NCBI GenBank assembly: GCA_963787125.1
Contig: CAWBBV010000001.1
Location: forward strand, 608,001 to 672,000
Origin: an uncultured delta proteobacterium
GTDB taxonomy: Bacteria; Desulfobacterota; Desulfuromonadia; Geobacterales; DSM-12255
Direction of reading: 5' to 3'
DNA length: 64,000 bases
A model generated the notes under the pieces. The model saw nothing but the letters and a program-made list of their open reading frames with translations. It had not been told where the DNA came from and made no database searches. The translations under genes and the position numbers were made by a program. Below, in pieces: positions 51,341-64,000 of the stretch (positions are counted from its first letter, which is position 1; the number at the start of each line of letters is the position of its first letter).

Positions 51341-52018
51341 ATGAAAGTCGTTATTATTGAAGATGAAAAAGATCTGGCCGAACTGCTTGCGTTCAATCTT
51401 GAAAAAGAGGGTTGGCAGACGCTCATAGCCCTTGACGGTAAATCCGGCTTGGAGCGAGTCTCAGCTGAACTTCCTGACATTGTAATTCTGGATCTGATGT
51501 TGCCGGAGATAAGCGGCACAGAGGTCTGCAAGCAGCTCAGGAAGCAGGCAAGCACCGCTGCAATCCCGATCATTATGGTTACCGCCAAGGGGGAAGAGAT
51601 TGACAGGGTCGTCGGCTTTGAGGTCGGCGCCGATGATTATCTGGTCAAGCCATTTTCTTCTCGGGAGCTTTTGCTCAGGATTAAAGCCATTCTGCGTCGT
51701 TCAACCGCAGAAATAAAAACTGAAAAAAATCTTGTCCTTGGGTGCGTAGAAATTGATCCTTCGCGGCACACGGTCCTGGTAAGCAGGGAAGAAATCGTAC
51801 TTACTTCAACGGAATACAAACTGCTGGTTACCCTGGCAGAGCGCCCCGGCAGGGTTCAGAGCCGTGAACGCCTGCTGCAGGACGTTTGGGGGTACAGCAG
51901 TGACGCCGATACCCGCACGGTGGATACCCACATAACCCGCTTGCGGGGCAAACTTGGCGAGGCCGGCGAGATGATAATAACCGTGCGCGGCTTCGGCTAC
52001 AAAATGGAATGCCGATGA
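51341..52018 (+). CDS. phoB: Phosphate regulon response regulator (OmpR family)
   Basis: LDLMLP, GEEIDRVVGFEVGADDY, TRTVDTHITRLR, TVRGFGY; near pst genes. Confidence 0.92.
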   Translation: MKVVIIEDEKDLAELLAFNLEKEGWQTLIALDGKSGLERVSAELPDIVILDLMLPEISGTEVCKQLRKQASTAAIPIIMVTAKGEEIDRVVGFEVGADDYLVKPFSSRELLLRIKAILRRSTAEIKTEKNLVLGCVEIDPSRHTVLVSREEIVLTSTEYKLLVTLAERPGRVQSRERLLQDVWGYSSDADTRTVDTHITRLRGKLGEAGEMIITVRGFGYKMECR

Positions 52019-53793
52019 GAATATCTTTCCGCTTCAAGCTGATGATCTCTTATCTTCTTATCCTTCTGGTGATGGGGGGATCGGTTTATTTTTATCTCAA
52101 CCGCACTCTGCAGAGCTCTTTTGTCACCTCGCTGACAGATAATCTTTTAAGCCAGACCAGGCTGGCAGCGTTAATGTTGGGCCGGAACCTGAATAGTCTG
52201 GAAACGGATGCGCCCCCCCTGGCCGCTCAACTGGGGAAAACTCTTACCGCACGAGTCACGATAATTGCAGCGAATGGCACCGTTGCCGGTGATTCGGAAG
52301 TCGCTCCGGCCCAGCTGCACGAGCTGGAAAATCATCTGGGCAGACCCGAGGTTCAAGATGCCTTGATGCACGGTACAGGTAGAGCCGTCCGCTACTCCGC
52401 GACACTTAGACATGAAATGCTCTACACCGCTGCCACCTTCGGCAATAACGGTCATGTTGCCGGTATTGTCAGACTGGCACTGCCACTTTCGGCCCTGCAA
52501 AGCGTTCGCAGCGGCTTGCACCAGACGCTCGGCAGCGCCCTCCTGTTATCTTTTCTTTTGACGCTGATCTTCAGCTATATTCTTTCCCGCCTCACTTCGC
52601 GCCCGTTGCAGCAGGTTGCGGCCATTGCCAAAGAGATCGGCAAGGGTAACTTCAACCGGCGCCTGCCGGCAGAATGGCATGATGAACTTGGGGATCTTGC
52701 CGGCATCATGAATGATATGGCGGCCAAGCTGGATGAACAACTTTCACGGTTGACCGCCGAGCGTAACCGGCTTGATGCGATTCTTTCCGGTATGGGCGAA
52801 GGATTGATGGTGACGGACAAGAGCGGCAGGGTGGCGCTGGTTAATCCGGCGTTCTGTGAGTTGTTCAGAGTGAATGAGGGGGTGGTCGGCACCCCTTTAA
52901 GTCATATTTCCCGGCACCCGGCGCTGCTCGCAGCGTATGATCTAGTCAGGAGCGACAAACGCGAGCTGCAGCAGGAGATGACCGTCCAGACCCCTGAGGA
53001 GAGGTTTCTCAGCACCCACTGGGTTCCGCTATTGGCTGAAAGCGGCATGCAGGGAGTCGTCGCGGTTTTCCATGATGTGACGGATCTGAAACGGCTGGAA
53101 AATATCCGCCGGGATTTTGTTGCTAATGTTTCTCACGAACTCCGCACCCCGGTTACCGTTATCAAGGGTTATTCAGAAACCCTCCTTGACGGGCTTATAA
53201 TTGAGCAACCGGAAAAAGCGACAGAGTTTGTCAGAATAATCCTCAGCCACTCCGAAAGACTGGCCGCACTCTTGAACGATCTCTTAAGTCTCTCTGAGAT
53301 GGAGTCCCCGGCTTTTTCATTCCAGATGAACTCGATCTCTATTGAAGGGACCGTCCGTAAGGTTTGTACGCTGTTGCAAAGCAAGGCAGCCGCCAAAGAG
53401 GTCAGCATCAGCAGCTCTGGTCTTGGGTCACTTTCGTCTGTCATGGCCGATCAGGGGAGACTTGAACAGGTACTGGTCAATTTACTCGATAATGCTGTCA
53501 AGTACTCAGCAGTAGGTGGAAGGATCTTTATAGCCGCCCATGAAGAAGCCGATCATGTTCGGATTTCAGTTAGCGATACCGGTCCGGGAATCCCGGCTGC
53601 CAGTATTCCCCGACTATTTGAGCGGTTCTACCGGGTCGATTCGGGCAGAAGTCGCAACGAGGGTGGAACCGGGCTTGGACTTGCAATCGTCAAGCATATT
53701 GTCCAGTTGCATGGCGGGACAGTCTGGGTTGAAAACAATGTCGCGGGGCCAGGCGCTACCTTCAATTTCACCTTGAAAAAAGTGATCACGTAA
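52015..53793 (+). CDS. phoR: Phosphate regulon sensor kinase
   Basis: ENHLGRPEV, HAMP, PAS, RRDFVANVSHELRTP, FERFYRVD, GGTGLGLAIVKH. Confidence 0.92.
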   Translation: MRISFRFKLMISYLLILLVMGGSVYFYLNRTLQSSFVTSLTDNLLSQTRLAALMLGRNLNSLETDAPPLAAQLGKTLTARVTIIAANGTVAGDSEVAPAQLHELENHLGRPEVQDALMHGTGRAVRYSATLRHEMLYTAATFGNNGHVAGIVRLALPLSALQSVRSGLHQTLGSALLLSFLLTLIFSYILSRLTSRPLQQVAAIAKEIGKGNFNRRLPAEWHDELGDLAGIMNDMAAKLDEQLSRLTAERNRLDAILSGMGEGLMVTDKSGRVALVNPAFCELFRVNEGVVGTPLSHISRHPALLAAYDLVRSDKRELQQEMTVQTPEERFLSTHWVPLLAESGMQGVVAVFHDVTDLKRLENIRRDFVANVSHELRTPVTVIKGYSETLLDGLIIEQPEKATEFVRIILSHSERLAALLNDLLSLSEMESPAFSFQMNSISIEGTVRKVCTLLQSKAAAKEVSISSSGLGSLSSVMADQGRLEQVLVNLLDNAVKYSAVGGRIFIAAHEEADHVRISVSDTGPGIPAASIPRLFERFYRVDSGRSRNEGGTGLGLAIVKHIVQLHGGTVWVENNVAGPGATFNFTLKKVIT

Positions 53794-54410: not shown

Positions 54411-54443
54411 GCCTATAACACGAACAATATGAATGGAGGCGAT

Positions 54444-54647
54444 ATGAAACTGATTCCGTTGGGCGATTATTACGTTTGGCACTGCGACTGGTGCGATAGC
54501 ACCAACTACACGATCTGGACACGCATGGAGCTGGATGGTCTTGCCTGCGCCGCCTGTCACAAAAAAGCCACTGCTTTTAGCGAAAGCTCAGCGGCATTCA
54601 GCCGCCAGCATGGTGCTGACAGAAGCGCTAATAATCTGACACTGTAA
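54444..54647 (+). CDS. 67-aa protein with CxxC...CxxCH (zinc-ribbon-like)
   Basis: SD GGAGG; WHCDWCDS...LACAACH; no signal peptide. Confidence 0.7.
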   Translation: MKLIPLGDYYVWHCDWCDSTNYTIWTRMELDGLACAACHKKATAFSESSAAFSRQHGADRSANNLTL

Positions 54648-55210: not shown

Positions 55211-56233
55211 ATGCTGATGTTCAAAAAAATTGTTATTTTAGTAAGTGCCTGCCTTATGGCAACCGCCTCACTGGCAGGAGCCGAAACGCTCGTAAACGGC
55301 GCCGGTGCGACTTTCCCTTATCCCCTTTACTCGAAATGGTTCAGCGAGTACGCCAAGATCGATAAATCGGTCAAGTTCAATTACCAGTCCATCGGCAGCG
55401 GCGGCGGCGTCAAGCAGATTACCGCCCAGACCGTTGATTTCGGCGCCTCAGACGCCTTTCTCTCCGATGCGCAGCTGAACGCCGCCCCGGGCAAGCTGCT
55501 CCATATCCCGACTGTCATGGGGGCGGTTGTCGTTACCTATAATCTTCCGGGCGTAGCCAAAGGGCTGAAGCTTAACTCGGAAGATGTAGCCAATATTTTT
55601 CTCGGCAAGATCACCAAATGGAATGACAAGCGAATTGCCGATGACAACCCTGGAGTGAATCTTCCGGACAAGGCAATCATCGTTGTCCACCGCTCTGACG
55701 GTAGCGGCACTACCAGTATCTTCACCGATTATCTTTCGGGTGTAAGCAACGAATGGACCCAGAAAGTAGGCAAGGGAACCGCTGTCAAGTGGCCGGTCGG
55801 TCTTGGCGGCAAAGGAAACGAAGGGGTAGCCGGACAGGTAAAGACCACCCAGTACACTATTGGCTATGTAGAGCTTGCCTATGCCTTTGAAAACAAACTC
55901 CCTTTTGCCACCCTGAAGAACGTGGCAGGCAGTTGGGTCGAACCATCCATCCAGAGCACCAGCTCTGCTGCCGCTGCTGCTATCAAGCATATGCCTGCTG
56001 ACTACCGGATCTCCCTCGTCAACCAGCCGGCAAAAGATGCCTACCCGATTGTCGGTTTTACCTGGTTGCTGGTGTATCAGGATCAGAAAGACAAGGTTAA
56101 AGGTAAAAAGATTGTCGAGTTCCTCAACTGGAGCCTCCATAAAGGCCAGAAGATGGCAGCACCGATGCTGTATGCGCCGCTGCCGGAAAGTGTTCTGAAA
56201 ATGGTTGAAAAGACAATCAAGACGATCAACTAG
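55211..56233 (+). CDS. pstS: Phosphate ABC transporter substrate-binding protein
   Basis: GAGATFPYP, YQSIGSGGG, HRSDGSGTT. Confidence 0.98.
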   Translation: MLMFKKIVILVSACLMATASLAGAETLVNGAGATFPYPLYSKWFSEYAKIDKSVKFNYQSIGSGGGVKQITAQTVDFGASDAFLSDAQLNAAPGKLLHIPTVMGAVVVTYNLPGVAKGLKLNSEDVANIFLGKITKWNDKRIADDNPGVNLPDKAIIVVHRSDGSGTTSIFTDYLSGVSNEWTQKVGKGTAVKWPVGLGGKGNEGVAGQVKTTQYTIGYVELAYAFENKLPFATLKNVAGSWVEPSIQSTSSAAAAAIKHMPADYRISLVNQPAKDAYPIVGFTWLLVYQDQKDKVKGKKIVEFLNWSLHKGQKMAAPMLYAPLPESVLKMVEKTIKTIN

Positions 56234-56253
56234 AAGTTTTTTCAAATAAGGTC

Positions 56254-56290
56254 AGCCCGGACGGATGCAGCCATCGTCCGGGCTTTTTTT
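56254..56290 (+). terminator. Stem-loop with U-tract between pstS and pstC
   Basis: AGCCCGGACGGATG...CATCGTCCGGGCT plus T run. Confidence 0.75.
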
Positions 56291-56312
56291 CGCTAAATGG
56301 AGTGTTACAGCC

Positions 56313-57305
56313 ATGCAACAACATGATTCTGCCGGTTCGGGAAAAGCTTTGGCTACGGGTAGCGACTCTGCCGCGGCAAATCGCAGAGGAGTTGACGGCG
56401 ATCGGCTTTACCGTTGGCTGACCGCTGCGTTTGCCGCGGCTATTCTGCTGATCCTTGCTCTGATGATCTATGAGATGACCAGGGAGAGTCTCCCTTCCAT
56501 CGCCAAATCCGGCTGGAGTTTTCTTTCGGGAAGTAACTGGGATGCCGTGCAGGAAGACTTTGCCGCACTGCCGTTTCTCTACGGTTCGGTCGTCTCATCC
56601 ATCCTGGCCATCCTCCTTGCTACCCCCTTAAGCGTTGCTACGGCCCTGTTTATAACAGAAGTGGCCCCGCAGAAATTTGGCGGAATTGTTGCGACACTGA
56701 TCGAGCTATTGGCGGCGATTCCCAGCGTTATCTACGGTCTCTGGGGGATTCTGGTGATGGCGCCCTGGCTGCAGAAGAGTGTTCAGCCCTGGCTTGTGGA
56801 CCACTTTGGTTTTCTCCCGTTTTTCAACGGCGCTCCGTACGGGGTCAGCATGATGGCCGGAGTGCTGATTCTGGCGATCATGATTGTGCCCATTATCACC
56901 GCTATCAGCCGGGAAGTGCTGCTGGCTGTGCCCCAAAGCCAGCGGGAGGCGGCAGTCGCCCTTGGCGCCACCAAGTGGGAAACGATCAAGATAGCGGTAC
57001 TCCCCTATGGCCGCTCCGGGATTCTTGGCGGAGTCATTCTCGGTCTGGGAAGAGCAATCGGCGAAACCATGGCTGTAACCATGGTGATCGGTAATACCCC
57101 GCAGATCTCACTATCGCTCCTTTCGCCTGCCTATACTATGCCGAGTGTTATCGCCAATGAATTTGCCGAAGCCACTAACAAGCTGCACTCCTCAGCCCTG
57201 ATGGAAATCGGCCTGATGCTGCTGGTGATGACTTTGATCATTAATGCCTTTGCCAGGATTCTTATCTGGAAAGTAACCAAGGGTCATAAGGGGGGGATGG
57301 TCTAA
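56313..57305 (+). CDS. pstC: Phosphate ABC transporter permease
   Basis: ELLAAIPSVIYGLWG, GRAIGETMAV. Confidence 0.97.
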   Translation: MQQHDSAGSGKALATGSDSAAANRRGVDGDRLYRWLTAAFAAAILLILALMIYEMTRESLPSIAKSGWSFLSGSNWDAVQEDFAALPFLYGSVVSSILAILLATPLSVATALFITEVAPQKFGGIVATLIELLAAIPSVIYGLWGILVMAPWLQKSVQPWLVDHFGFLPFFNGAPYGVSMMAGVLILAIMIVPIITAISREVLLAVPQSQREAAVALGATKWETIKIAVLPYGRSGILGGVILGLGRAIGETMAVTMVIGNTPQISLSLLSPAYTMPSVIANEFAEATNKLHSSALMEIGLMLLVMTLIINAFARILIWKVTKGHKGGMV

Positions 57306-58144
57306 TGCAGAATCTTTCCTTTCGGCACGGCAAGAGTTACACCGCAACAGCGTTGATGCTTTTGGCGACTTTTATTGTTCTAACGCCGTTGTGTCTCATT
57401 TTTATTCACATTTTGAAGATGGGGTTCAGTTCACTTTCGCTCGATTTTTTTACCCAGATTCCCAAGCCTACCGGTGAAAGTGGCGGCGGCATGGCTAACG
57501 GACTTTTCGGCTCGGCTTTATTGATAGCGCTTGCTTCCTGTCTCGGTCTGCCGATAGGGATTCTGGGAGCGATCTATCTTACCGAGTTTGCCGGCGGTCG
57601 GCTGGCTACAGTTATCAGATTCAGCGCTGACGTCCTCGCCGGGATTCCGTCCATAATCACCGGCATGGTTGCCTACACAATGCTGGTGCTCCCCATGAAA
57701 GGTTTTTCGGCTCTTGCCGGAGCTGTCGCCTTGTCGCTGATAATGATTCCGATTGTCCTGCGGACAACTGAGGAACAGCTAAAAATGGTGCCGGGAACGC
57801 TGCGCGAAGCATCACTGGCACTGGGAGTGCCCTTGTGGCGAACCAGCCTGAAGGTTATTCTGAAAAGTGCCAGTAAAGGGGTTGTTACCGGAATACTCCT
57901 GGCAGTTGCCAGAGTCGCCGGCGAAACAGCGCCGCTGCTCTTTACCGCCCTTGGCAACCAGTTCTGGAGTCGTAAACTTACCGAGCCGATAGCGGCGCTG
58001 CCGCTGCAGATTTTCAGCTTTGCCATTGCTCCGTACGACGACTGGCATAAGCTGGCCTGGGCAGGTGCGCTGGTTCTGGTGGTAATCATGTTTACCCTGA
58101 ATCTGGGTGCACGTCTCCTGGGCAGACAGAAGAAATATTCGTGA
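57305..58144 (+). CDS. pstA: Phosphate ABC transporter permease
   Basis: [25 protein letters not shown]. Confidence 0.97.
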
Positions 58145-58151
58145 GGAAAAA

Positions 58152-58910
58152 ATGAACGCAATTATCAAACTTGAAAATATGAGTGTCCATTTCGGGACTA
58201 ATCATGCGGTAAATGATGTTTCCCTTGATTTTATCGAGAACAGTGTCACAGCGATAATCGGTCCTTCAGGCTGTGGTAAATCGACCCTGCTGCGCTCCAT
58301 AAACCGGATGCATGATCTTGTCCCTTCTGCCAAGGTTAGCGGGCGGATCCTTTTCGATGGCCGGGATCTTTATGATCGCTCCGTCGATCCGGTAGCGGTG
58401 CGGCGCAAGATCGGCATGGTTTTTCAGAAACCTAATCCGTTTCCGGCCATGAATATTTATGATAATGTTGTGGCCGGGTACAAATTAAATAACCGTATGA
58501 AGCGCAGTGATGCCGACGAGATCGTCGAAACCTGCCTGAAGCGGGTTGCTCTTTGGGATGAAGTCAAGGACCGGCTTAAAACCAGCGCTGTCGATCTCTC
58601 CGGCGGCCAGCAGCAAAGGCTCTGTATCGCCAGAACCATTGCCGTCCAGCCGGAAGTGATCCTGATGGACGAGCCCTGCTCGGCCCTTGATCCGATTGCC
58701 ACCCTCAAGATTGAGGAGTTGGTCGAAGAGCTTAAAGAGCGCTTCACCATCATCATCGTGACGCACAACATGCAGCAGGCCGCCAGAGTTTCTGACGCCA
58801 CCGCTTTTATGTATATGGGTGAGCTTATCGAAAGCGGGCCGACCAAGAAGATTTTTACTACTCCGGAGAGGAAGCAGACTGAAGATTATATTACCGGGCG
58901 TTTTGGCTAA
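58152..58910 (+). CDS. pstB: Phosphate ABC transporter ATPase
   Basis: [36 protein letters not shown]. Confidence 0.98.
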
Positions 58911-58923
58911 AAAGGCGGGAACA

Positions 58924-59025
58924 GTGAACTGTAAACTGTGAACTGTGAACTGTAACATCTATAAAAACATCGGTTGGGTATGGTTTTAGCTTTTACTGAT
59001 TCCGGATCCCGGATCCCGATTCACG
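58924..59025. repeat. Two short heptamer tandem arrays in the pstB-phoU spacer
   Basis: GT(G/A)AACT x4 at 58924-58951 plus partial copy; GATCCCG-like x4 at 58998-59025. Confidence 0.8.
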
Positions 59026-59036
59026 AGGTTCAATAA

Positions 59037-59708
59037 ATGGAAAGAGAACATTTCAGCAAACAGTATGACGCCGAGTTGAAAAACATCAGGGAAAAGCTTC
59101 TGGAGATGGGGGGCAAGGTCGAGCTGATGATCAATGATGCCCTTAAGGCGCTTGTGGAGCGGGATTCCGCCCTGGCTGACAGGGTTATTATCTATGACCA
59201 CGAGATTAACCGGCTGGAGATGCATATCGATGAGAAGTGTCTTGAGGTGCTGGCGCTGCGGCAGCCAGCAGCCCGGGATCTCCGTTTCATTACCCTGGCG
59301 CTGAAGATCGTCACCGATCTTGAGCGGATTGGCGATCAGTGCCGCAATATCGGCAAACGTGTCAAGGAGTTGAACGAAGAGCCCCCCTTGAAACCTTATA
59401 TCGATCTGCCGAGAATGGCCACCTGGGCCGGTGTTATGGTGAAAGAGGCGCTGGATGCCTTTGTGCGCGGCGACGCTGACCTGGCTATCAAGGTTTGCCG
59501 GGATGACGACTTTGTCGATCAACTCAACGAGCAGATTCAGCGGGAACTCCTGACCTTCATGAGCGAAGACGCCAGCACCATCAGCCGTTCCCTGAAAATC
59601 ATCTATGTCTCTAAATGTCTGGAGCGTATTGCCGATCATGCCACCAACGTGGCGGAGATGGTTATTTTCATGGTCAAAGGGAAGGATATCAGGCATACAG
59701 AGGTGTAG
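59037..59708 (+). CDS. phoU: Phosphate signalling complex protein PhoU
   Basis: QPAARDLR, DLERIGD, LERIADHATNVAE. Confidence 0.98.
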   Translation: MEREHFSKQYDAELKNIREKLLEMGGKVELMINDALKALVERDSALADRVIIYDHEINRLEMHIDEKCLEVLALRQPAARDLRFITLALKIVTDLERIGDQCRNIGKRVKELNEEPPLKPYIDLPRMATWAGVMVKEALDAFVRGDADLAIKVCRDDDFVDQLNEQIQRELLTFMSEDASTISRSLKIIYVSKCLERIADHATNVAEMVIFMVKGKDIRHTEV

Positions 59709-59760: not shown

Positions 59761-59768
59761 GCCTTGAT

Positions 59769-59799
59769 AAGGTCTGAAAACGTTCTGTTTTCAGACCTT
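59769..59799. terminator. Hairpin between convergent phoU and EAL gene
   Basis: AAGGTCTGAAAAC-GTTCT-GTTTTCAGACCTT. Confidence 0.75.
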
Positions 59800-59807
59800 G
59801 TTTTGTT

Positions 59808-61112
59808 TCAGCTGCAAAGGGGATTTGCTGATGGTTTGGCCAGCAGATACCCCTGGCCGAAATGGATGCCGATCGTTTGCAGATATGCCAGTTCTTCAGG
59901 CCGCTCTATCCCCTCGGCAATGACTTGCGCCCCGATTTTATTGCAGAAAGTTACCAGACATTCGACCAGCGCCTGTTTCGTAGAGGATTGATCGATATTG
60001 GCGATCAGGAATCTGGCCAGCTTCACGTACTCGGGTTCAAGACTTGCCAGCATCTGCAGGCCTGCATAGCCGGAACCCAGATCATCAATGGCGATTGAAT
60101 ACCCCTGCTCCCGGTAATGAGCCACTCCCCGCAGGAACAGATCATAATCTTCAATGACCGTTCTTTCCGTCAGTTCAAAGACAATCCGGGAACGCTCGAT
60201 CTGCAGCTCATCCAGAAGACTCGCCGTCAGGCCCCGTTCGTGGTCGCTGGACTGGAAAAGGGCCGGACTGACATTGAGGAATATCTTGCCGGGAATCTCC
60301 AGATTTCTGACATTGCCGAGCGCTTTTTTCCGACAGAGGATCTCCAGCGCCGAAGCGAGTCCATACGCTCCCGATTTGGCGAACAGCTCTTCGGTATTGT
60401 CGATGATGCCGGGCCGGCTGACGCGACTCAAGGCTTCATAACCATAGACTGTGCCGCTCTCCAGGTGTACGACCGGCTGATAGACCGGCGTGATCAGCTC
60501 GCAGCTGATGATCTTTTCAATGGCGGCCAGTTCGCTATTGTGGCCGCTTTCGGGCTGAACCGGCGCGCCGAAGAGTTCCTGAAACGCCCTGAAGAGGGCG
60601 TTATCACTGCTCTCACCGATCCGGTTGGTGAGGTAGACCCCCTCAACCTTGATGGAGACTTCGCGGTCGCTGCCAAGGGGGAGAATCTGTCTGGCCATGA
60701 GCGTATGCTCGTCAAGCAGCGCGAGTTCGGCCTGCATCAGGGCAAGGTCCTGGCGAAACAGCCGGTCATCGTAGACGCTAACAGGCACCAAGAGGAGAAA
60801 AAAGTCCTTCATCCCTGACTTGTAAGCCCCCGCAACCCGTCCGGACAGTTGGCGTCCCAGTTTACGGAGCAGAATTGCTACCCTGCTCATAAGGTCGTCG
60901 GGGAGAAATTCACCATAGTTAAGATGGATGGCGACAATGCCGGCATGGCCTGATTTTTCCAGAGTGGCTTTAAAGGTGGTAAACAGGTGCGTACAGTCGC
61001 CGATGGACTCTTCAAGCCGCGGTTGCCGTACCGACGCTAGCGGAAGTGACGGCAGGGGAGGCAGGACGTGACTACTCCCCCCCGGGTAGCCTACCATCTG
61101 CATAGCCATCAT
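59808..61112 (-). CDS. EAL c-di-GMP phosphodiesterase with a degenerate GGDEF-like N-terminus
   Basis: YEALSR, NVSP, ELTE, IDDLGSGYAGL, AEGIE, QGYL. Confidence 0.9.
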   Translation of the reverse strand: MMAMQMVGYPGGSSHVLPPLPSLPLASVRQPRLEESIGDCTHLFTTFKATLEKSGHAGIVAIHLNYGEFLPDDLMSRVAILLRKLGRQLSGRVAGAYKSGMKDFFLLLVPVSVYDDRLFRQDLALMQAELALLDEHTLMARQILPLGSDREVSIKVEGVYLTNRIGESSDNALFRAFQELFGAPVQPESGHNSELAAIEKIISCELITPVYQPVVHLESGTVYGYEALSRVSRPGIIDNTEELFAKSGAYGLASALEILCRKKALGNVRNLEIPGKIFLNVSPALFQSSDHERGLTASLLDELQIERSRIVFELTERTVIEDYDLFLRGVAHYREQGYSIAIDDLGSGYAGLQMLASLEPEYVKLARFLIANIDQSSTKQALVECLVTFCNKIGAQVIAEGIERPEELAYLQTIGIHFGQGYLLAKPSANPLCS

Positions 61113-61276
61113 TTTTCATCCAGCAGGGCAAAAAGATGCTCGCCGAAATATTCCCTGTTGGCCTGGCGATATTCATCGCGCAGTTCACGGAATTTGGCTA
61201 TGGATGAGTCCAGGTCTTTCAGTCCGGAAGCTTCGGAAAATGTGACTTTTTTGAAGTTGAAAAATAATAACTTCAT
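61109..61276 (-). CDS. 55-aa protein of unknown function (not in the ORF track)
   Basis: SD AAGGAG; MKLLFFNFKKVTFSEASGLKDLDSSIAKFRELRDEYRQANREYFGEHLFALLDEK*; ATGA overlap with the EAL gene. Confidence 0.75.
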   Translation of the reverse strand: MKLLFFNFKKVTFSEASGLKDLDSSIAKFRELRDEYRQANREYFGEHLFALLDEK

Positions 61277-61288
61277 TTTTGGATCTCC

Positions 61289-61600
61289 TTATTTTTCGTG
61301 ACTGGCCAGCATGAAGATGCCGGTCATTTTGAAAAGTATCGTGTTGGTCGGATTCAACTGCCGCAGAAAAATCTCGGCCTTTTTTTCGTCGCGAATATTC
61401 TTGAAGCAGCGGAGCAGTAGAGCTATTCCCATGGAATTTATCCGCCCGGCCTGACTGAAATCGATGCGGACAACCTGATTGCTCACCATGGCGGGAAGTC
61501 CCTGCAGCTCTTTTTCGGCAGCAGCATCGATGTTGCCGTGCAGCTCAATGTGGTCAATTAGCTCCGCAGAGCGGGCGGTGATTTTGAATAAATCAGCCAT
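61289..61600 (-). CDS. STAS anti-sigma-antagonist-type protein
   Basis: IDFSQAGRINSMGIALL with phosphorylatable Ser; SD AGGAGG. Confidence 0.88.
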   Translation of the reverse strand: MADLFKITARSAELIDHIELHGNIDAAAEKELQGLPAMVSNQVVRIDFSQAGRINSMGIALLLRCFKNIRDEKKAEIFLRQLNPTNTILFKMTGIFMLASHEK

Positions 61601-61614
61601 GAAACCTCCTTTTG

Positions 61615-62589
61615 TTACAGGTAGTTGTAGTCGGTGGAAATGGAAAACCCTTTGGGGCTTTCACAGTCGAGTGGCGAAGAGGCTTTGAGATGCCCGCCGA
61701 GCACTGTCTGCATGCCGGGGAGGATATTCACATGCAGATGGTCCAGAAATCGCCAGATAATGAAAAGTCCGCGGCCGCCGACTTCTTCCTGCGCCGTCTC
61801 CATGCCATCTTGATTACGCGCCAGAAAATCGACGACCATCCCCGGCGCCAGGGTTCCCCAGCCGTCGGTAATTTCCATGGCCAGAGTCTCGCCGTCAAAG
61901 GCGAAGCGAAATTTTATCTTTTCGTCGGCGTCTATGGCCCGATTCTCTCCCTTACTGTAAAGCTTTCTGCCGTCATCACCCTGAGGCGCCCCGTAAAGAG
62001 CGTTTTCCACCATTTCGTCTGCCAGCAATGCTGCCCTTTGCCGGAGTAATTCCATCTCCTCGGAATCACCGCTGATAGTGGTTACCAGGGCAGCGATGAG
62101 AGACTCTTTCTCGTTGGACGATGTCAGCGAAAACTCATGAACCGGACTGCCCGCGCTGACATAGTCATGCAACTCCCAGGGAGATCTCACCAGTAGTCTG
62201 GTTATGGCCTCATGCAGAGAAGCAATTCCGCTCTCATCGTCTGCGGTCGGGGTAACAAGCAGATGTCTGATACTGTCGGCTGCGAGCTGTTGGAGTGGCG
62301 GCAATGGGTCTGTTGCCAAGGTAACCAGCAGTATTTCGGCTCCAGGGTATAATTTATTGATTTCTCTGACCAGCTCCGGGCGCGACTCGGGATAAAGCCT
62401 GCTGGAGAGGATCACCAGCGCCGGCTGCAGCTGTAACAGGGCCATTTTTTCACCGAACAGCTTTTGCTCCGGAGGATTGCCAATACATAGCAGCCCGGGA
62501 AGCCCTGTTAACAGGGGCAGGAACGCATCTTCATCAATTACGCTGTTAAATAGTGCCAGGACGAGGTGACGGTCCGTAATGCCCTTCAT
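61615..62589 (-). CDS. RsbW/SpoIIAB-like Ser kinase (GHKL) with degenerate receiver-like N-terminus
   Basis: DEMVENAL, ITDGWG, GGRGLFII; SD AAGGAGG before ATG 62589. Confidence 0.8.
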   Translation of the reverse strand: MKGITDRHLVLALFNSVIDEDAFLPLLTGLPGLLCIGNPPEQKLFGEKMALLQLQPALVILSSRLYPESRPELVREINKLYPGAEILLVTLATDPLPPLQQLAADSIRHLLVTPTADDESGIASLHEAITRLLVRSPWELHDYVSAGSPVHEFSLTSSNEKESLIAALVTTISGDSEEMELLRQRAALLADEMVENALYGAPQGDDGRKLYSKGENRAIDADEKIKFRFAFDGETLAMEITDGWGTLAPGMVVDFLARNQDGMETAQEEVGGRGLFIIWRFLDHLHVNILPGMQTVLGGHLKASSPLDCESPKGFSISTDYNYL

Positions 62590-62602
62590 AGTGCCTCCTT
62601 GG

Positions 62603-62722
62603 TCCAATCCTAAATCAAAGCGCTATCTTCGTTGGCTCGTCTTCGGCTCCTCAGCGTACTGATGTACTGCTTCGTTGCCTCAATCCTCGCCGCCTTGATT
62701 TCATCTTTGATTTAGAATCGGA
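62603..62722. repeat. ~120-bp palindromic REP/MITE-like element
   Basis: Terminal inverted repeats TCCAATCCTAAATCAAAG / CTTTGATTTAGAATCGGA (16/18); central GTAC-TGAT-GTAC. Confidence 0.6.
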
Positions 62723-62723
62723 A

Positions 62724-63917
62724 TTAAATCTCTGTTGCCGCAATCAGCAGGGTTACATCATCTTCAAAGGCCGTGGTTTCCGTAAAGAGTTCCGCTGATC
62801 TCCGTAATAGATTACGCAATTCCAGCGGTGAGTAATCCCCGGCTTTGGCCAGAATCCTCTCCAGGCGCTCATAACCGAATTCTTCTCCTTGCGGGTTTGT
62901 GCATTCCACGATGCCATCGCTGTAAAGAAAAAGGGTATCACCGGGATGGAAATCACAGGTCAACTCCTGGTAAGAACAGTTTTCCTCAAAGCCGAGCGGA
63001 AAGCCGGCCACCTCCTGGATCATTTCAGGAGCAAAATCCCTCCGGCGGATGATGTAGGGGAAGTTATGGCCGGCGTTGGCCAGAATTATTTTATTGGCAG
63101 TGCGATCAATGACAATGATCAGGCAGGTCATCAGCAGGCTCTGGCGGGCGGTGGCCAGGATGGCGTTATTCATGCCGTAGAGCAGCTCTGCCGGAGTTTT
63201 TACTCCAAGGCCTATCAGTGAGTGGAGGCTGGCTTTGGCAGCGGTGGTCACCATGCCTGCCTGCACCCCATGACCGCTGACATCGGCAACTACCAGTCCC
63301 AAAAGATCTTCGCCAAGGGGAAAATAATCATAAAAGTCGCCGCCGATTTCCGATGAAGTAACCACCCCGGCACTGATGCTGATGTCGCCATGACGACACT
63401 CTGCCGGGGGGAGAAGGTCCCGCTGGATCTTGCTCGCCTTGTCAACTTCCGCAGAAATTCTTGCACTGAGTAGTTGCAGAGTGTTGAAAAGCTTCACCTG
63501 GGTTTCCGAGATTTTCATCATCAGATCGGAAACGGCGACGATACCGAGACAGGCGTCAGCCCCAACAACGGGAAAAGAGTCGATCGTCAAGCCGGGGTCA
63601 ACCTCAAGCAGTCTGACCAGGGCGGCGTTGATATCAAGCTCTGCTGCCAGCGCCAGCTGGCTTTCTGCCAACAGCACCCGGATTGCTTTTTTGCCATACA
63701 GGTCAACGGCAAAAGGACGGCCCAGCTGTTCGAAGAAGAGCACCTTGCGGTTGATTACCCCGATGAATTTCCCCTCCGCGCTCACCGGCAGGGCAAGCAG
63801 GGACTGATCCCTCTGGAAGAGCTCCATAACATCTTTTACCTGGGTTGTTGCAACGATCTCCGGCGCAGTGCGCATGATATCGAACAGCGTCGGGACAACT
63901 TGAAGCAGATGATTCAT
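62724..63917 (-). CDS. CBS-domain SpoIIE/RsbU-type PP2C phosphatase
   Basis: N-terminal CBS pair; IQRDLLP, GGDFYD, ADVSGHG, NAGH, SDG, EDDVT. Confidence 0.92.
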   Translation of the reverse strand: MNHLLQVVPTLFDIMRTAPEIVATTQVKDVMELFQRDQSLLALPVSAEGKFIGVINRKVLFFEQLGRPFAVDLYGKKAIRVLLAESQLALAAELDINAALVRLLEVDPGLTIDSFPVVGADACLGIVAVSDLMMKISETQVKLFNTLQLLSARISAEVDKASKIQRDLLPPAECRHGDISISAGVVTSSEIGGDFYDYFPLGEDLLGLVVADVSGHGVQAGMVTTAAKASLHSLIGLGVKTPAELLYGMNNAILATARQSLLMTCLIIVIDRTANKIILANAGHNFPYIIRRRDFAPEMIQEVAGFPLGFEENCSYQELTCDFHPGDTLFLYSDGIVECTNPQGEEFGYERLERILAKAGDYSPLELRNLLRRSAELFTETTAFEDDVTLLIAATEI

Positions 63918-63971
63918 ATATCCCCCATTTGTATGACGGGCGGCCGCAGAATGCCCTTTGCAACCCCTAAG

Positions 63972-64000
63972 AAATTAACAGCGCCATGTTGCAGGGAAGT
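63972..64000 (-). promoter_or_regulatory. Putative pho-box promoter (truncated by the window edge)
   Basis: Minus strand ...AC-TTCC-CTGCAAC-N10-TAATTT. Confidence 0.55.

Follow-up and report, generated by a model that had tools for sequence, protein, structure and literature searches.

Five minus-strand genes at the end of a 64,000-nucleotide (nt) window of DNA from an uncultured delta proteobacterium of the order Geobacterales (contig CAWBBV010000001.1, positions 608,001 to 672,000 of the forward strand; window coordinates below count from its first letter) encode, in order of transcription, a CBS-PP2C phosphatase, an RsbW-like kinase, a STAS protein, a mini-protein and an EAL enzyme. We read them as a partner-switching module without a sigma factor that belongs to a phosphate-starvation island of the Geobacterales, would be induced by PhoB and, in this genome, would control the EAL enzyme through partner exchange by the STAS protein; we give this reading a probability of about 0.5. 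The conserved core of the module consists of four genes, those for the CBS-PP2C phosphatase, the pseudo-receiver/RsbW-like kinase, the STAS protein and the mini-protein. Its link to phosphate is well supported, and an output through cyclic di-GMP (c-di-GMP) is plausible but not obligatory.

The open reading frames (ORFs) lie back to back between positions 59808 and 63917 and converge on the plus-strand genes pstSCAB-phoU. ORF calls and Pfam domains bear out this arrangement, which had been proposed in a preliminary description of the sequence, and the five genes are confirmed as real. An operon without a sigma factor, also proposed there, is what was found: none is encoded by the five genes, and no sigma-family match was obtained among the 164 (136 + 28) neighbouring proteins scanned. 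No terminator-like sites were reported on the minus strand within the operon, and the hairpin that separates it from phoU is likely a two-way terminator. Features of the locus are summarized in Table 1. None of the operon proteins reached the cut-off of an NCBIfam model (SiaA, NF038263, 48.5 bits against 700; RssB, 55.2 against 700; RimA, 128 against 430).

As in the RsbU/RsbW/RsbV and SpoIIE/SpoIIAB/SpoIIAA systems, genes for a PPM phosphatase, for a GHKL serine kinase with the fold of RsbW/SpoIIAB and for a STAS protein whose serine loop is conserved lie together. By domain content and modelled fold, the phosphatase, the kinase and the STAS protein with its conserved serine that mark an RsbU/W/V-type switch appear to be present, and no sigma factor, the client expected of such a switch, is encoded in the operon or among the scanned neighbours. 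In the phosphatase, Pfam places a CBS domain in front and a SpoIIE-type PPM domain behind, and a second CBS domain is visible in the orthologues. The closest solved chains were those of RssB, Rv1364c, a SiaA-type phosphatase and SpoIIE. The metal-binding Asp motifs of the PPM type, described earlier as intact, line up with those of RssB. There is also some basis for the suggestion that the CBS segment recalls EAL-CBS-GGDEF proteins, as the CBS pair of the phosphatase aligns at 22% over 133 residues (E 2e-5) with that of such a protein, encoded after the module in Geobacter argillaceus. The homology of the two CBS pairs hints that one and the same ligand matters to both proteins.

The kinase gene probably starts at ATG 62589, with AAGGAGG upstream, and would then encode 324 amino acids (aa). 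Only a sub-threshold match to HATPase_c_2 was found in Pfam (6e-4; 20.3 bits against a cut-off of 27.4). An AlphaFold model of the protein (predicted local distance difference test score, pLDDT, 86.7; predicted template modelling score 0.86) was compared with solved structures using Foldseek. Its C-terminal half matched RsbW (6m37), SpoIIAB (1tid, 1th8 and 1l0o) and a mycobacterial anti-sigma-F factor (E 9e-6 to 3e-4, template modelling score 0.58-0.66), and its N-terminal half matched receiver domains of the (beta-alpha)5 fold. An alignment of 18 orthologues leaves E198, N202, D248, G251, G278 and G280 unchanged, and with them the Glu and Asn of the N-box and both Gly boxes. The predicted identity as a GHKL serine kinase of the RsbW/SpoIIAB type, put forward in the preliminary description, thus holds on the modelled fold and the invariant N-, G1- and G2-box residues. 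The phospho-acceptor Asp expected after strand 3 of the receiver half is absent. Since this position is occupied by Ser, Gly or Ala in every orthologue that has the domain, the N-terminal half is regarded as a pseudo-receiver. Elsewhere in this genome, which has four SpoIIE-family genes in total, a second SpoIIE-family phosphatase adjoins a canonical short RsbW-like kinase scoring above the cut-off (55.7 bits; G000:C16:79963-80947).

Within the STAS protein, residues R53, N55, S56, M57 and G58 form an R-x-N-S-M-G loop that is invariant in 27 sequences, remote ones included, and this agrees with the NSMG site recognized earlier. The loop around S56 aligns with a solved chain of the SpoIIAA family. 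According to a review (PMC8256260), the phosphorylated Ser58 of SpoIIAA sits in a conserved loop, and S56 is probably its equivalent and a candidate phosphosite. In one relative, a Mu-type transposase gene interrupts the module between the kinase and STAS genes (L035 6908-8542). At remote loci of Methylococcaceae and Acidithiobacillus, a phosphonate-binding-like periplasmic protein (PF12974) either carries the STAS domain as a fusion or comes after it (L102 9792-10946 and L104 9935-10810).

The mini-protein gene ends in a stop codon that overlaps the start of the EAL gene. Its product has no match in Pfam or NCBIfam, and in the protein atlas the best score was 0.82, with no named family. A homologous small ORF nevertheless follows the STAS gene in 41 of the 64 loci at which the kinase was found (see below), and D23, N40 and G45 are invariant in an alignment of 30 sequences. 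A profile search of 1.84 billion protein representatives returned 38 at E <= 1e-3, with lengths of 36-86 aa in all cases except one, and a word-based homologue search retrieved only five close relatives, the query among them. An iterative hidden Markov model search of six-frame ORFs was compromised when it picked up the STAS gene read in another frame, and served only to add one locus (L059). The possibility that the ORF is spurious was rejected because it is kept in loci without an EAL gene; for the same reason, and because no fused form occurs among the 38 profile representatives, it was not accepted as the split N-terminus of the EAL protein.

The last gene of the operon encodes the EAL enzyme. 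All 17 sequences aligned keep E226, N280, E313, E316, D343, D344, K364, E400 and Q420, taken here as the catalytic and metal-binding residues following the literature on RocR and TBD1265. With these residues kept and a strong Pfam match, the EAL enzyme named in the preliminary description is borne out, and the protein is predicted to be an active c-di-GMP phosphodiesterase. Its N-terminal domain has no Pfam GGDEF match and lacks the GG(D/E)EF active-site motif. When the predicted structure (pLDDT 75.1) was used in Foldseek, the tandem GGDEF-EAL proteins MorA, PA0575, RbdA, DosP and LapD were matched over the full length (412-443 alignment columns among the ten best), so residues 35-200 are considered a GGDEF-fold domain that has lost its signature; as a diguanylate cyclase domain it would have the fold but not the motif. 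Alignment of this domain with five real GGDEF domains in hhalign gave the expected register at E 0.031 and a probability of 1.6%, which is too weak to count alone.

To what extent these genes travel together can be seen from the relatives. Among 60 relatives belonging to the same order the kinase turned up in 21, and in a collection with one genome per species it was found at 64 loci, nearly all of them titled Geobacteraceae, Geobacter, Geotalea, Geomonas, Citrifermentans, Oryzomonas or Desulfuromonadales. Cultured carriers include strains of Geotalea, Geomonas, Citrifermentans bremense, Geobacter argillaceus and Oryzomonas japonica. Acidithiobacillus sulfuriphilus, Parvibium lacunae and two metagenome-assembled genomes, one titled Desulfobulbus and one from the Methylococcaceae, account for the four distant loci. 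With the kinase query, the species collection yielded no record under the name of Geobacter sulfurreducens or of G. metallireducens. The phosphatase gene lies next to the kinase gene in 56 of the 64 loci and the STAS gene follows it in 60. In the Geotalea toluenoxydans record (L053 7781-11731), matches to the phosphatase and EAL genes are spread over several reading frames, which indicates frameshifts or sequencing errors.

Genes of phosphate metabolism (pstS/C/A/B, phoU, phoB/R, psiE, ppx, CHAD or a phosphate porin) occur in the fetched flanks, of about 9 kb, at 30 of the 64 loci and at 20 of the 39 loci of at least 15 kb, compared with 1.7% of 18.5-kb windows of the window's own genome under the same thresholds. 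The position of the module varies: it is convergent with phoU in this genome, and in others it lies downstream of phoU, of pstS, of ppx-CHAD or of psiE. Linkage of a conserved operon to pst/pho genes, which had been named as a check of the original proposal, was therefore found in differing gene orders across genera.

In the pstS promoters of this clade, two CTGTAAC-type heptamers 11 bp apart are followed by 10 nt and then by the -10 element. The promoter of the phosphatase gene has the same geometry as the pstS promoter of its own genome, with four heptamer positions spaced in steps of 11 bp and, after 10 nt, a hexamer resembling a -10 element (63977-63972). Its proximal heptamer (63994-63988) matches at six of seven positions, and the fourth, lying 33 bp further upstream, also matches well. 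No sigma-70 -35/-10 pair was found here, as expected for an activator-dependent promoter. A 60-nt promoter block is conserved in six close relatives, and the flanks diverge. The gene immediately upstream of the phosphatase gene is ppx in close relatives, whereas in this genome a transposase/type III restriction-modification block separates the phosphatase promoter from the ppx-CHAD genes further on; this block therefore looks inserted upstream of the promoter, and the conserved promoter block survives the insertion. The block lies just past the window end (L002 5386-13451, G000:C1) and comprises the gene for an insertion sequence-type transposase (382 aa), the two genes of a type III restriction-modification pair (856 and 529 aa) and a further two small genes.

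A matrix built from ten pstS sites only was used to score the 200 nt upstream of the phosphatase gene at 55 loci, with 41,422 windows of the window's own genome, coding sequence included, as the null. Upstream regions of orthologous phosphatase genes exceeded the 99.9th percentile of this null in 11 of the 55 cases, the 99th in 15 and the 95th in 26. The exact heptamer is present in 23 of the 55 regions, against an expectation of 0.06 per region. In a genome-wide scan with the two-repeat matrix, pstS, phoB and a few others were among the top matches, and the remaining top matches were uninterpretable with a crude ORF finder.

An EAL-containing, c-di-GMP-related gene directly adjoins the module in 25 of the 64 loci, in four architectures. 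The degenerate-GGDEF/EAL type follows the mini-protein gene at 14 loci and in this window, and EAL-CBS-GGDEF follows it at two, one of them from Geobacter argillaceus. A PAS-GGDEF-EAL protein of about 800 aa is encoded right after the STAS gene at five loci without the mini-protein, plus one cut by a contig end. At four loci the gene just before that of the phosphatase encodes an EAL-only protein of about 320 aa. These architectures fall in separate clades of a kinase tree (a quick search with support from the Shimodaira-Hasegawa-like approximate likelihood ratio test only; two rows were excluded, for an internal stop and for shortness). At other loci the product of the next gene is a histidine kinase of the hybrid or PAS type, a chemoreceptor or a glycosyltransferase, or else an uncharacterised protein of about 360 aa whose gene is paired with one of the GH3 family.

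Several partner switches are known that dispense with a sigma factor. In SiaABCD of Pseudomonas aeruginosa, HptB-HsbR-HsbA-HsbD and BgrSTUWV-BgrR of Sinorhizobium meliloti, a STAS-type protein governs a c-di-GMP enzyme according to whether the protein is phosphorylated; in the pairs SiaC-SiaD, HsbA-HsbD and BgrV-BgrR this protein binds the enzyme, in each case a diguanylate cyclase, and none of the three switches is described as Pho-linked in the accessible part of that source (PMC8457831). The module described here is likewise free of a sigma factor, but it adjoins an EAL phosphodiesterase, of opposite enzymatic sign. It is not assigned to SiaABCD: the score of the SiaA model is far below the cut-off, its partner protein is a STAS protein whereas SiaC is a DUF1987 protein, and its putative output is an EAL enzyme with a degenerate GGDEF domain. 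From RsbU/W/V and SpoIIE/AB/AA it differs in the lack of a sigma factor, the CBS-pair input, the kinase pseudo-receiver, the protein of about 50 aa after STAS and the setting among Pho genes. RapA, an EAL enzyme under a Pho box, as is proposed for the one considered here, is a Pho-induced phosphodiesterase through which phosphate starvation lowers c-di-GMP; it is described in PMC3032545 and PMC3032553 as governed by PhoB-dependent expression alone, whereas the module co-encodes a phosphatase/kinase/STAS layer. The full-length tandem GGDEF-EAL fold of MorA, PA0575, RbdA, DosP and LapD is shared by the EAL protein, which keeps the EAL catalytic residues, but its GGDEF signature is lost and it has no PAS or other sensor domain. 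In the full-text literature, subscription-only journals being outside the scope, neither this module nor any partner switch with an EAL enzyme as its target was found described. The module is a new form of partner switching, distinguished by the absence of a sigma factor, CBS input, pseudo-receiver, mini-protein, residence in a Pho island and phosphodiesterase-type neighbours.

What is shown is how the module is built, that it is conserved and linked to Pho genes, and how often the promoter motif occurs; we infer that PhoB induces the operon, that S56 is phosphorylated, that the CBS pair senses a metabolite and that partner exchange controls the EAL enzyme, and the steps might be as follows. 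Under phosphate scarcity, phosphorylated PhoB would turn the operon on. The kinase would hold the STAS protein phosphorylated at S56, and the CBS pair of the phosphatase would sense an adenosine-type or phosphate-related metabolite and so set the rate of dephosphorylation. Unphosphorylated STAS protein would then swap partners, with or via the mini-protein, and in this genome the exchange would release or activate the degenerate-GGDEF/EAL phosphodiesterase, so that c-di-GMP falls. In genomes without this EAL enzyme the same core would act on other clients. The module may in this way link phosphate hunger to surface attachment. More tentatively, the mini-protein could be the true switched client or adaptor of an undescribed class of Pho-wired partner switches, which would join phosphate starvation, through transcription, to the metabolite bound by the CBS-phosphatase, and pass the output to interchangeable clients; these would be a c-di-GMP phosphodiesterase here and PAS-GGDEF-EAL proteins, histidine kinases or a chemoreceptor elsewhere.

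A number of results weigh against the reading of the operon as a PhoB-induced switch with the EAL enzyme as client. At 39 of the 64 loci no c-di-GMP gene is directly adjacent. Moreover, in five complete genomes (99-100% complete) that have the core and no adjacent EAL gene, the N-terminal domain of this EAL type was not found at E <= 0.01, and as a positive control the same query gave exactly one match, at the module, in four of four genomes carrying this type (a fifth genome in that search, of the EAL-CBS-GGDEF type, gave none). The core thus appears to work without this EAL enzyme, which is a recurrent but optional attachment and not the conserved client. The five genes therefore do not hold as one unit, as had been supposed at the outset: the conserved unit is phosphatase-kinase-STAS and the mini-protein. 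The c-di-GMP output proposed with them retains the evidence of the recruited EAL-type enzymes but loses its place in that unit. The kinase falls below the Pfam cut-off, and a profile search with it found no solved RsbW or SpoIIAB chain, which marks its family as divergent. The promoter proposed at 63972-64000 on the strength of its Pho-box geometry stood with respect to the proximal heptamer, the spacer and the -10-like hexamer, but the next, distal heptamer (64005-63999) matches the local consensus at only four of seven positions. The plus-strand bases 64001-64005, predicted to read about T(A/G)CA(A/G), are CTCAT and agree at two of five. The upstream region as a whole reaches only the 97.45th percentile of the null, and its site was not among the 424 matches scoring at least 9 in the genome-wide scan. 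The counts of promoters and of linkage overstate the evidence, as related genomes are not independent, and in several loci another gene precedes the phosphatase gene, so the promoter may lie elsewhere.

Some of these results would fit a switch whose client, a sigma factor or another regulator, is encoded elsewhere, with the EAL gene merely a co-transcribed member of the Pho regulon under RapA-like transcriptional control and no gating by STAS. The persistence of the core at loci without an adjacent c-di-GMP gene and in the five complete genomes speaks for this account, as does the fact that classical RsbW-type kinases bind and hold sigma factors; RapA, for its part, requires PhoB only. We consider it possible but doubtful, for EAL-type genes of four architectures were recruited beside the module in separate clades, the mini-protein and EAL genes overlap in this genome, no sigma factor lies near any scanned locus, and the known sigma-less switches work via STAS on enzymes, as far as the accessible part of PMC8457831 describes them. 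Feedback of the module on phosphate signalling or polyphosphate metabolism (PhoR/PhoU/Pst, Ppx/CHAD), with the mini-protein as effector, is suggested by the abutment of the module on phoU, pstS, phoBR or ppx-CHAD in many loci, by the histidine kinases that come after the mini-protein in several, and by the pairing of STAS with a phosphonate-binding-like protein in remote relatives. As this is evidence of adjacency alone, and 34 of the 64 loci have no Pho gene in the fetched flanks, such feedback seems improbable. That the operon is not phosphate-regulated at all, with the pst neighbourhood due to chance or shared ancestry and the promoter repeats fortuitous, would accord with the modest matrix score of its own site, the failed distal bases and the non-independence of kin; linkage in differing arrangements at 30 of 64 loci, so far above the 1.7% background, and strong sites in several named genera make it very unlikely.

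Relatives of Geobacter live attached to minerals and electrodes in the phosphate-poor subsurface, and a switch joining phosphate status to c-di-GMP would bear on the control of attachment and biofilm formation in them. Phosphate limitation of Geobacter species in the subsurface is reported in the paper on the genome of Geobacter bemidjiensis (PMC2996986). The known range of partner switches, whose examples in the part of PMC8457831 available to us all drive diguanylate cyclases, would be widened by a client that is a phosphodiesterase, by a CBS input, by a kinase pseudo-receiver and by a conserved mini-protein. If the mini-protein does act as client or adaptor in the manner outlined above, the module would be the first demonstrated case of a partner switch that targets an EAL enzyme.

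Table 1. Position and basis of assignment of the module, its promoter and neighbouring features in the window
Feature	Position	Strand	Basis or remark
Promoter with Pho-box-like geometry	63972..64000, running past the window end to about 64027	-	Heptamers at 11-bp steps, 10 nt, -10-like hexamer
CBS-pair + PPM/SpoIIE-type serine phosphatase, 397 aa	62724..63917	-	Pfam SpoIIE 7e-42, CBS 1.2e-7
Pseudo-receiver + RsbW/SpoIIAB-like GHKL serine kinase (predicted), longest ORF 330 aa	61615..62607	-	Fold and conserved boxes
STAS-only protein, 103 aa	61289..61600	-	Pfam STAS 8e-6; candidate phospho-serine S56
Conserved mini-protein, 55 aa (about 48 aa in most relatives)	61109..61276	-	Without family match
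Degenerate-GGDEF + EAL protein, 434 aa	59808..61112	-	Pfam EAL 2.3e-48, residues 207-427
Hairpin with 17-bp stem	59766..59802		Between the stops of the convergent phoU and EAL genes
pstS-pstC-pstA-pstB-phoU	55211..59708	+	Neighbouring context
phoB-phoR	51341-53793		Neighbouring context

The Pho islands hold further recurrent genes. In the window, a small Zn-ribbon-like ORF of 72 aa (54429-54647, plus strand) has a two-heptamer Pho box and a -10 element upstream, and many relatives have homologues of it in their Pho islands. A gene pair encoding the uncharacterised protein of about 360 aa and the GH3-family adenylating enzyme recurs beside the module and Pho genes (L032 3714-6373; also L029, L033, L035, L041 and many others), where genes for a large LGT-like membrane protein and an 800-aa GT4 glycosyltransferase recur as well. 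The pair and the LGT-like and GT4 genes may serve lipid or envelope remodelling under phosphate starvation.

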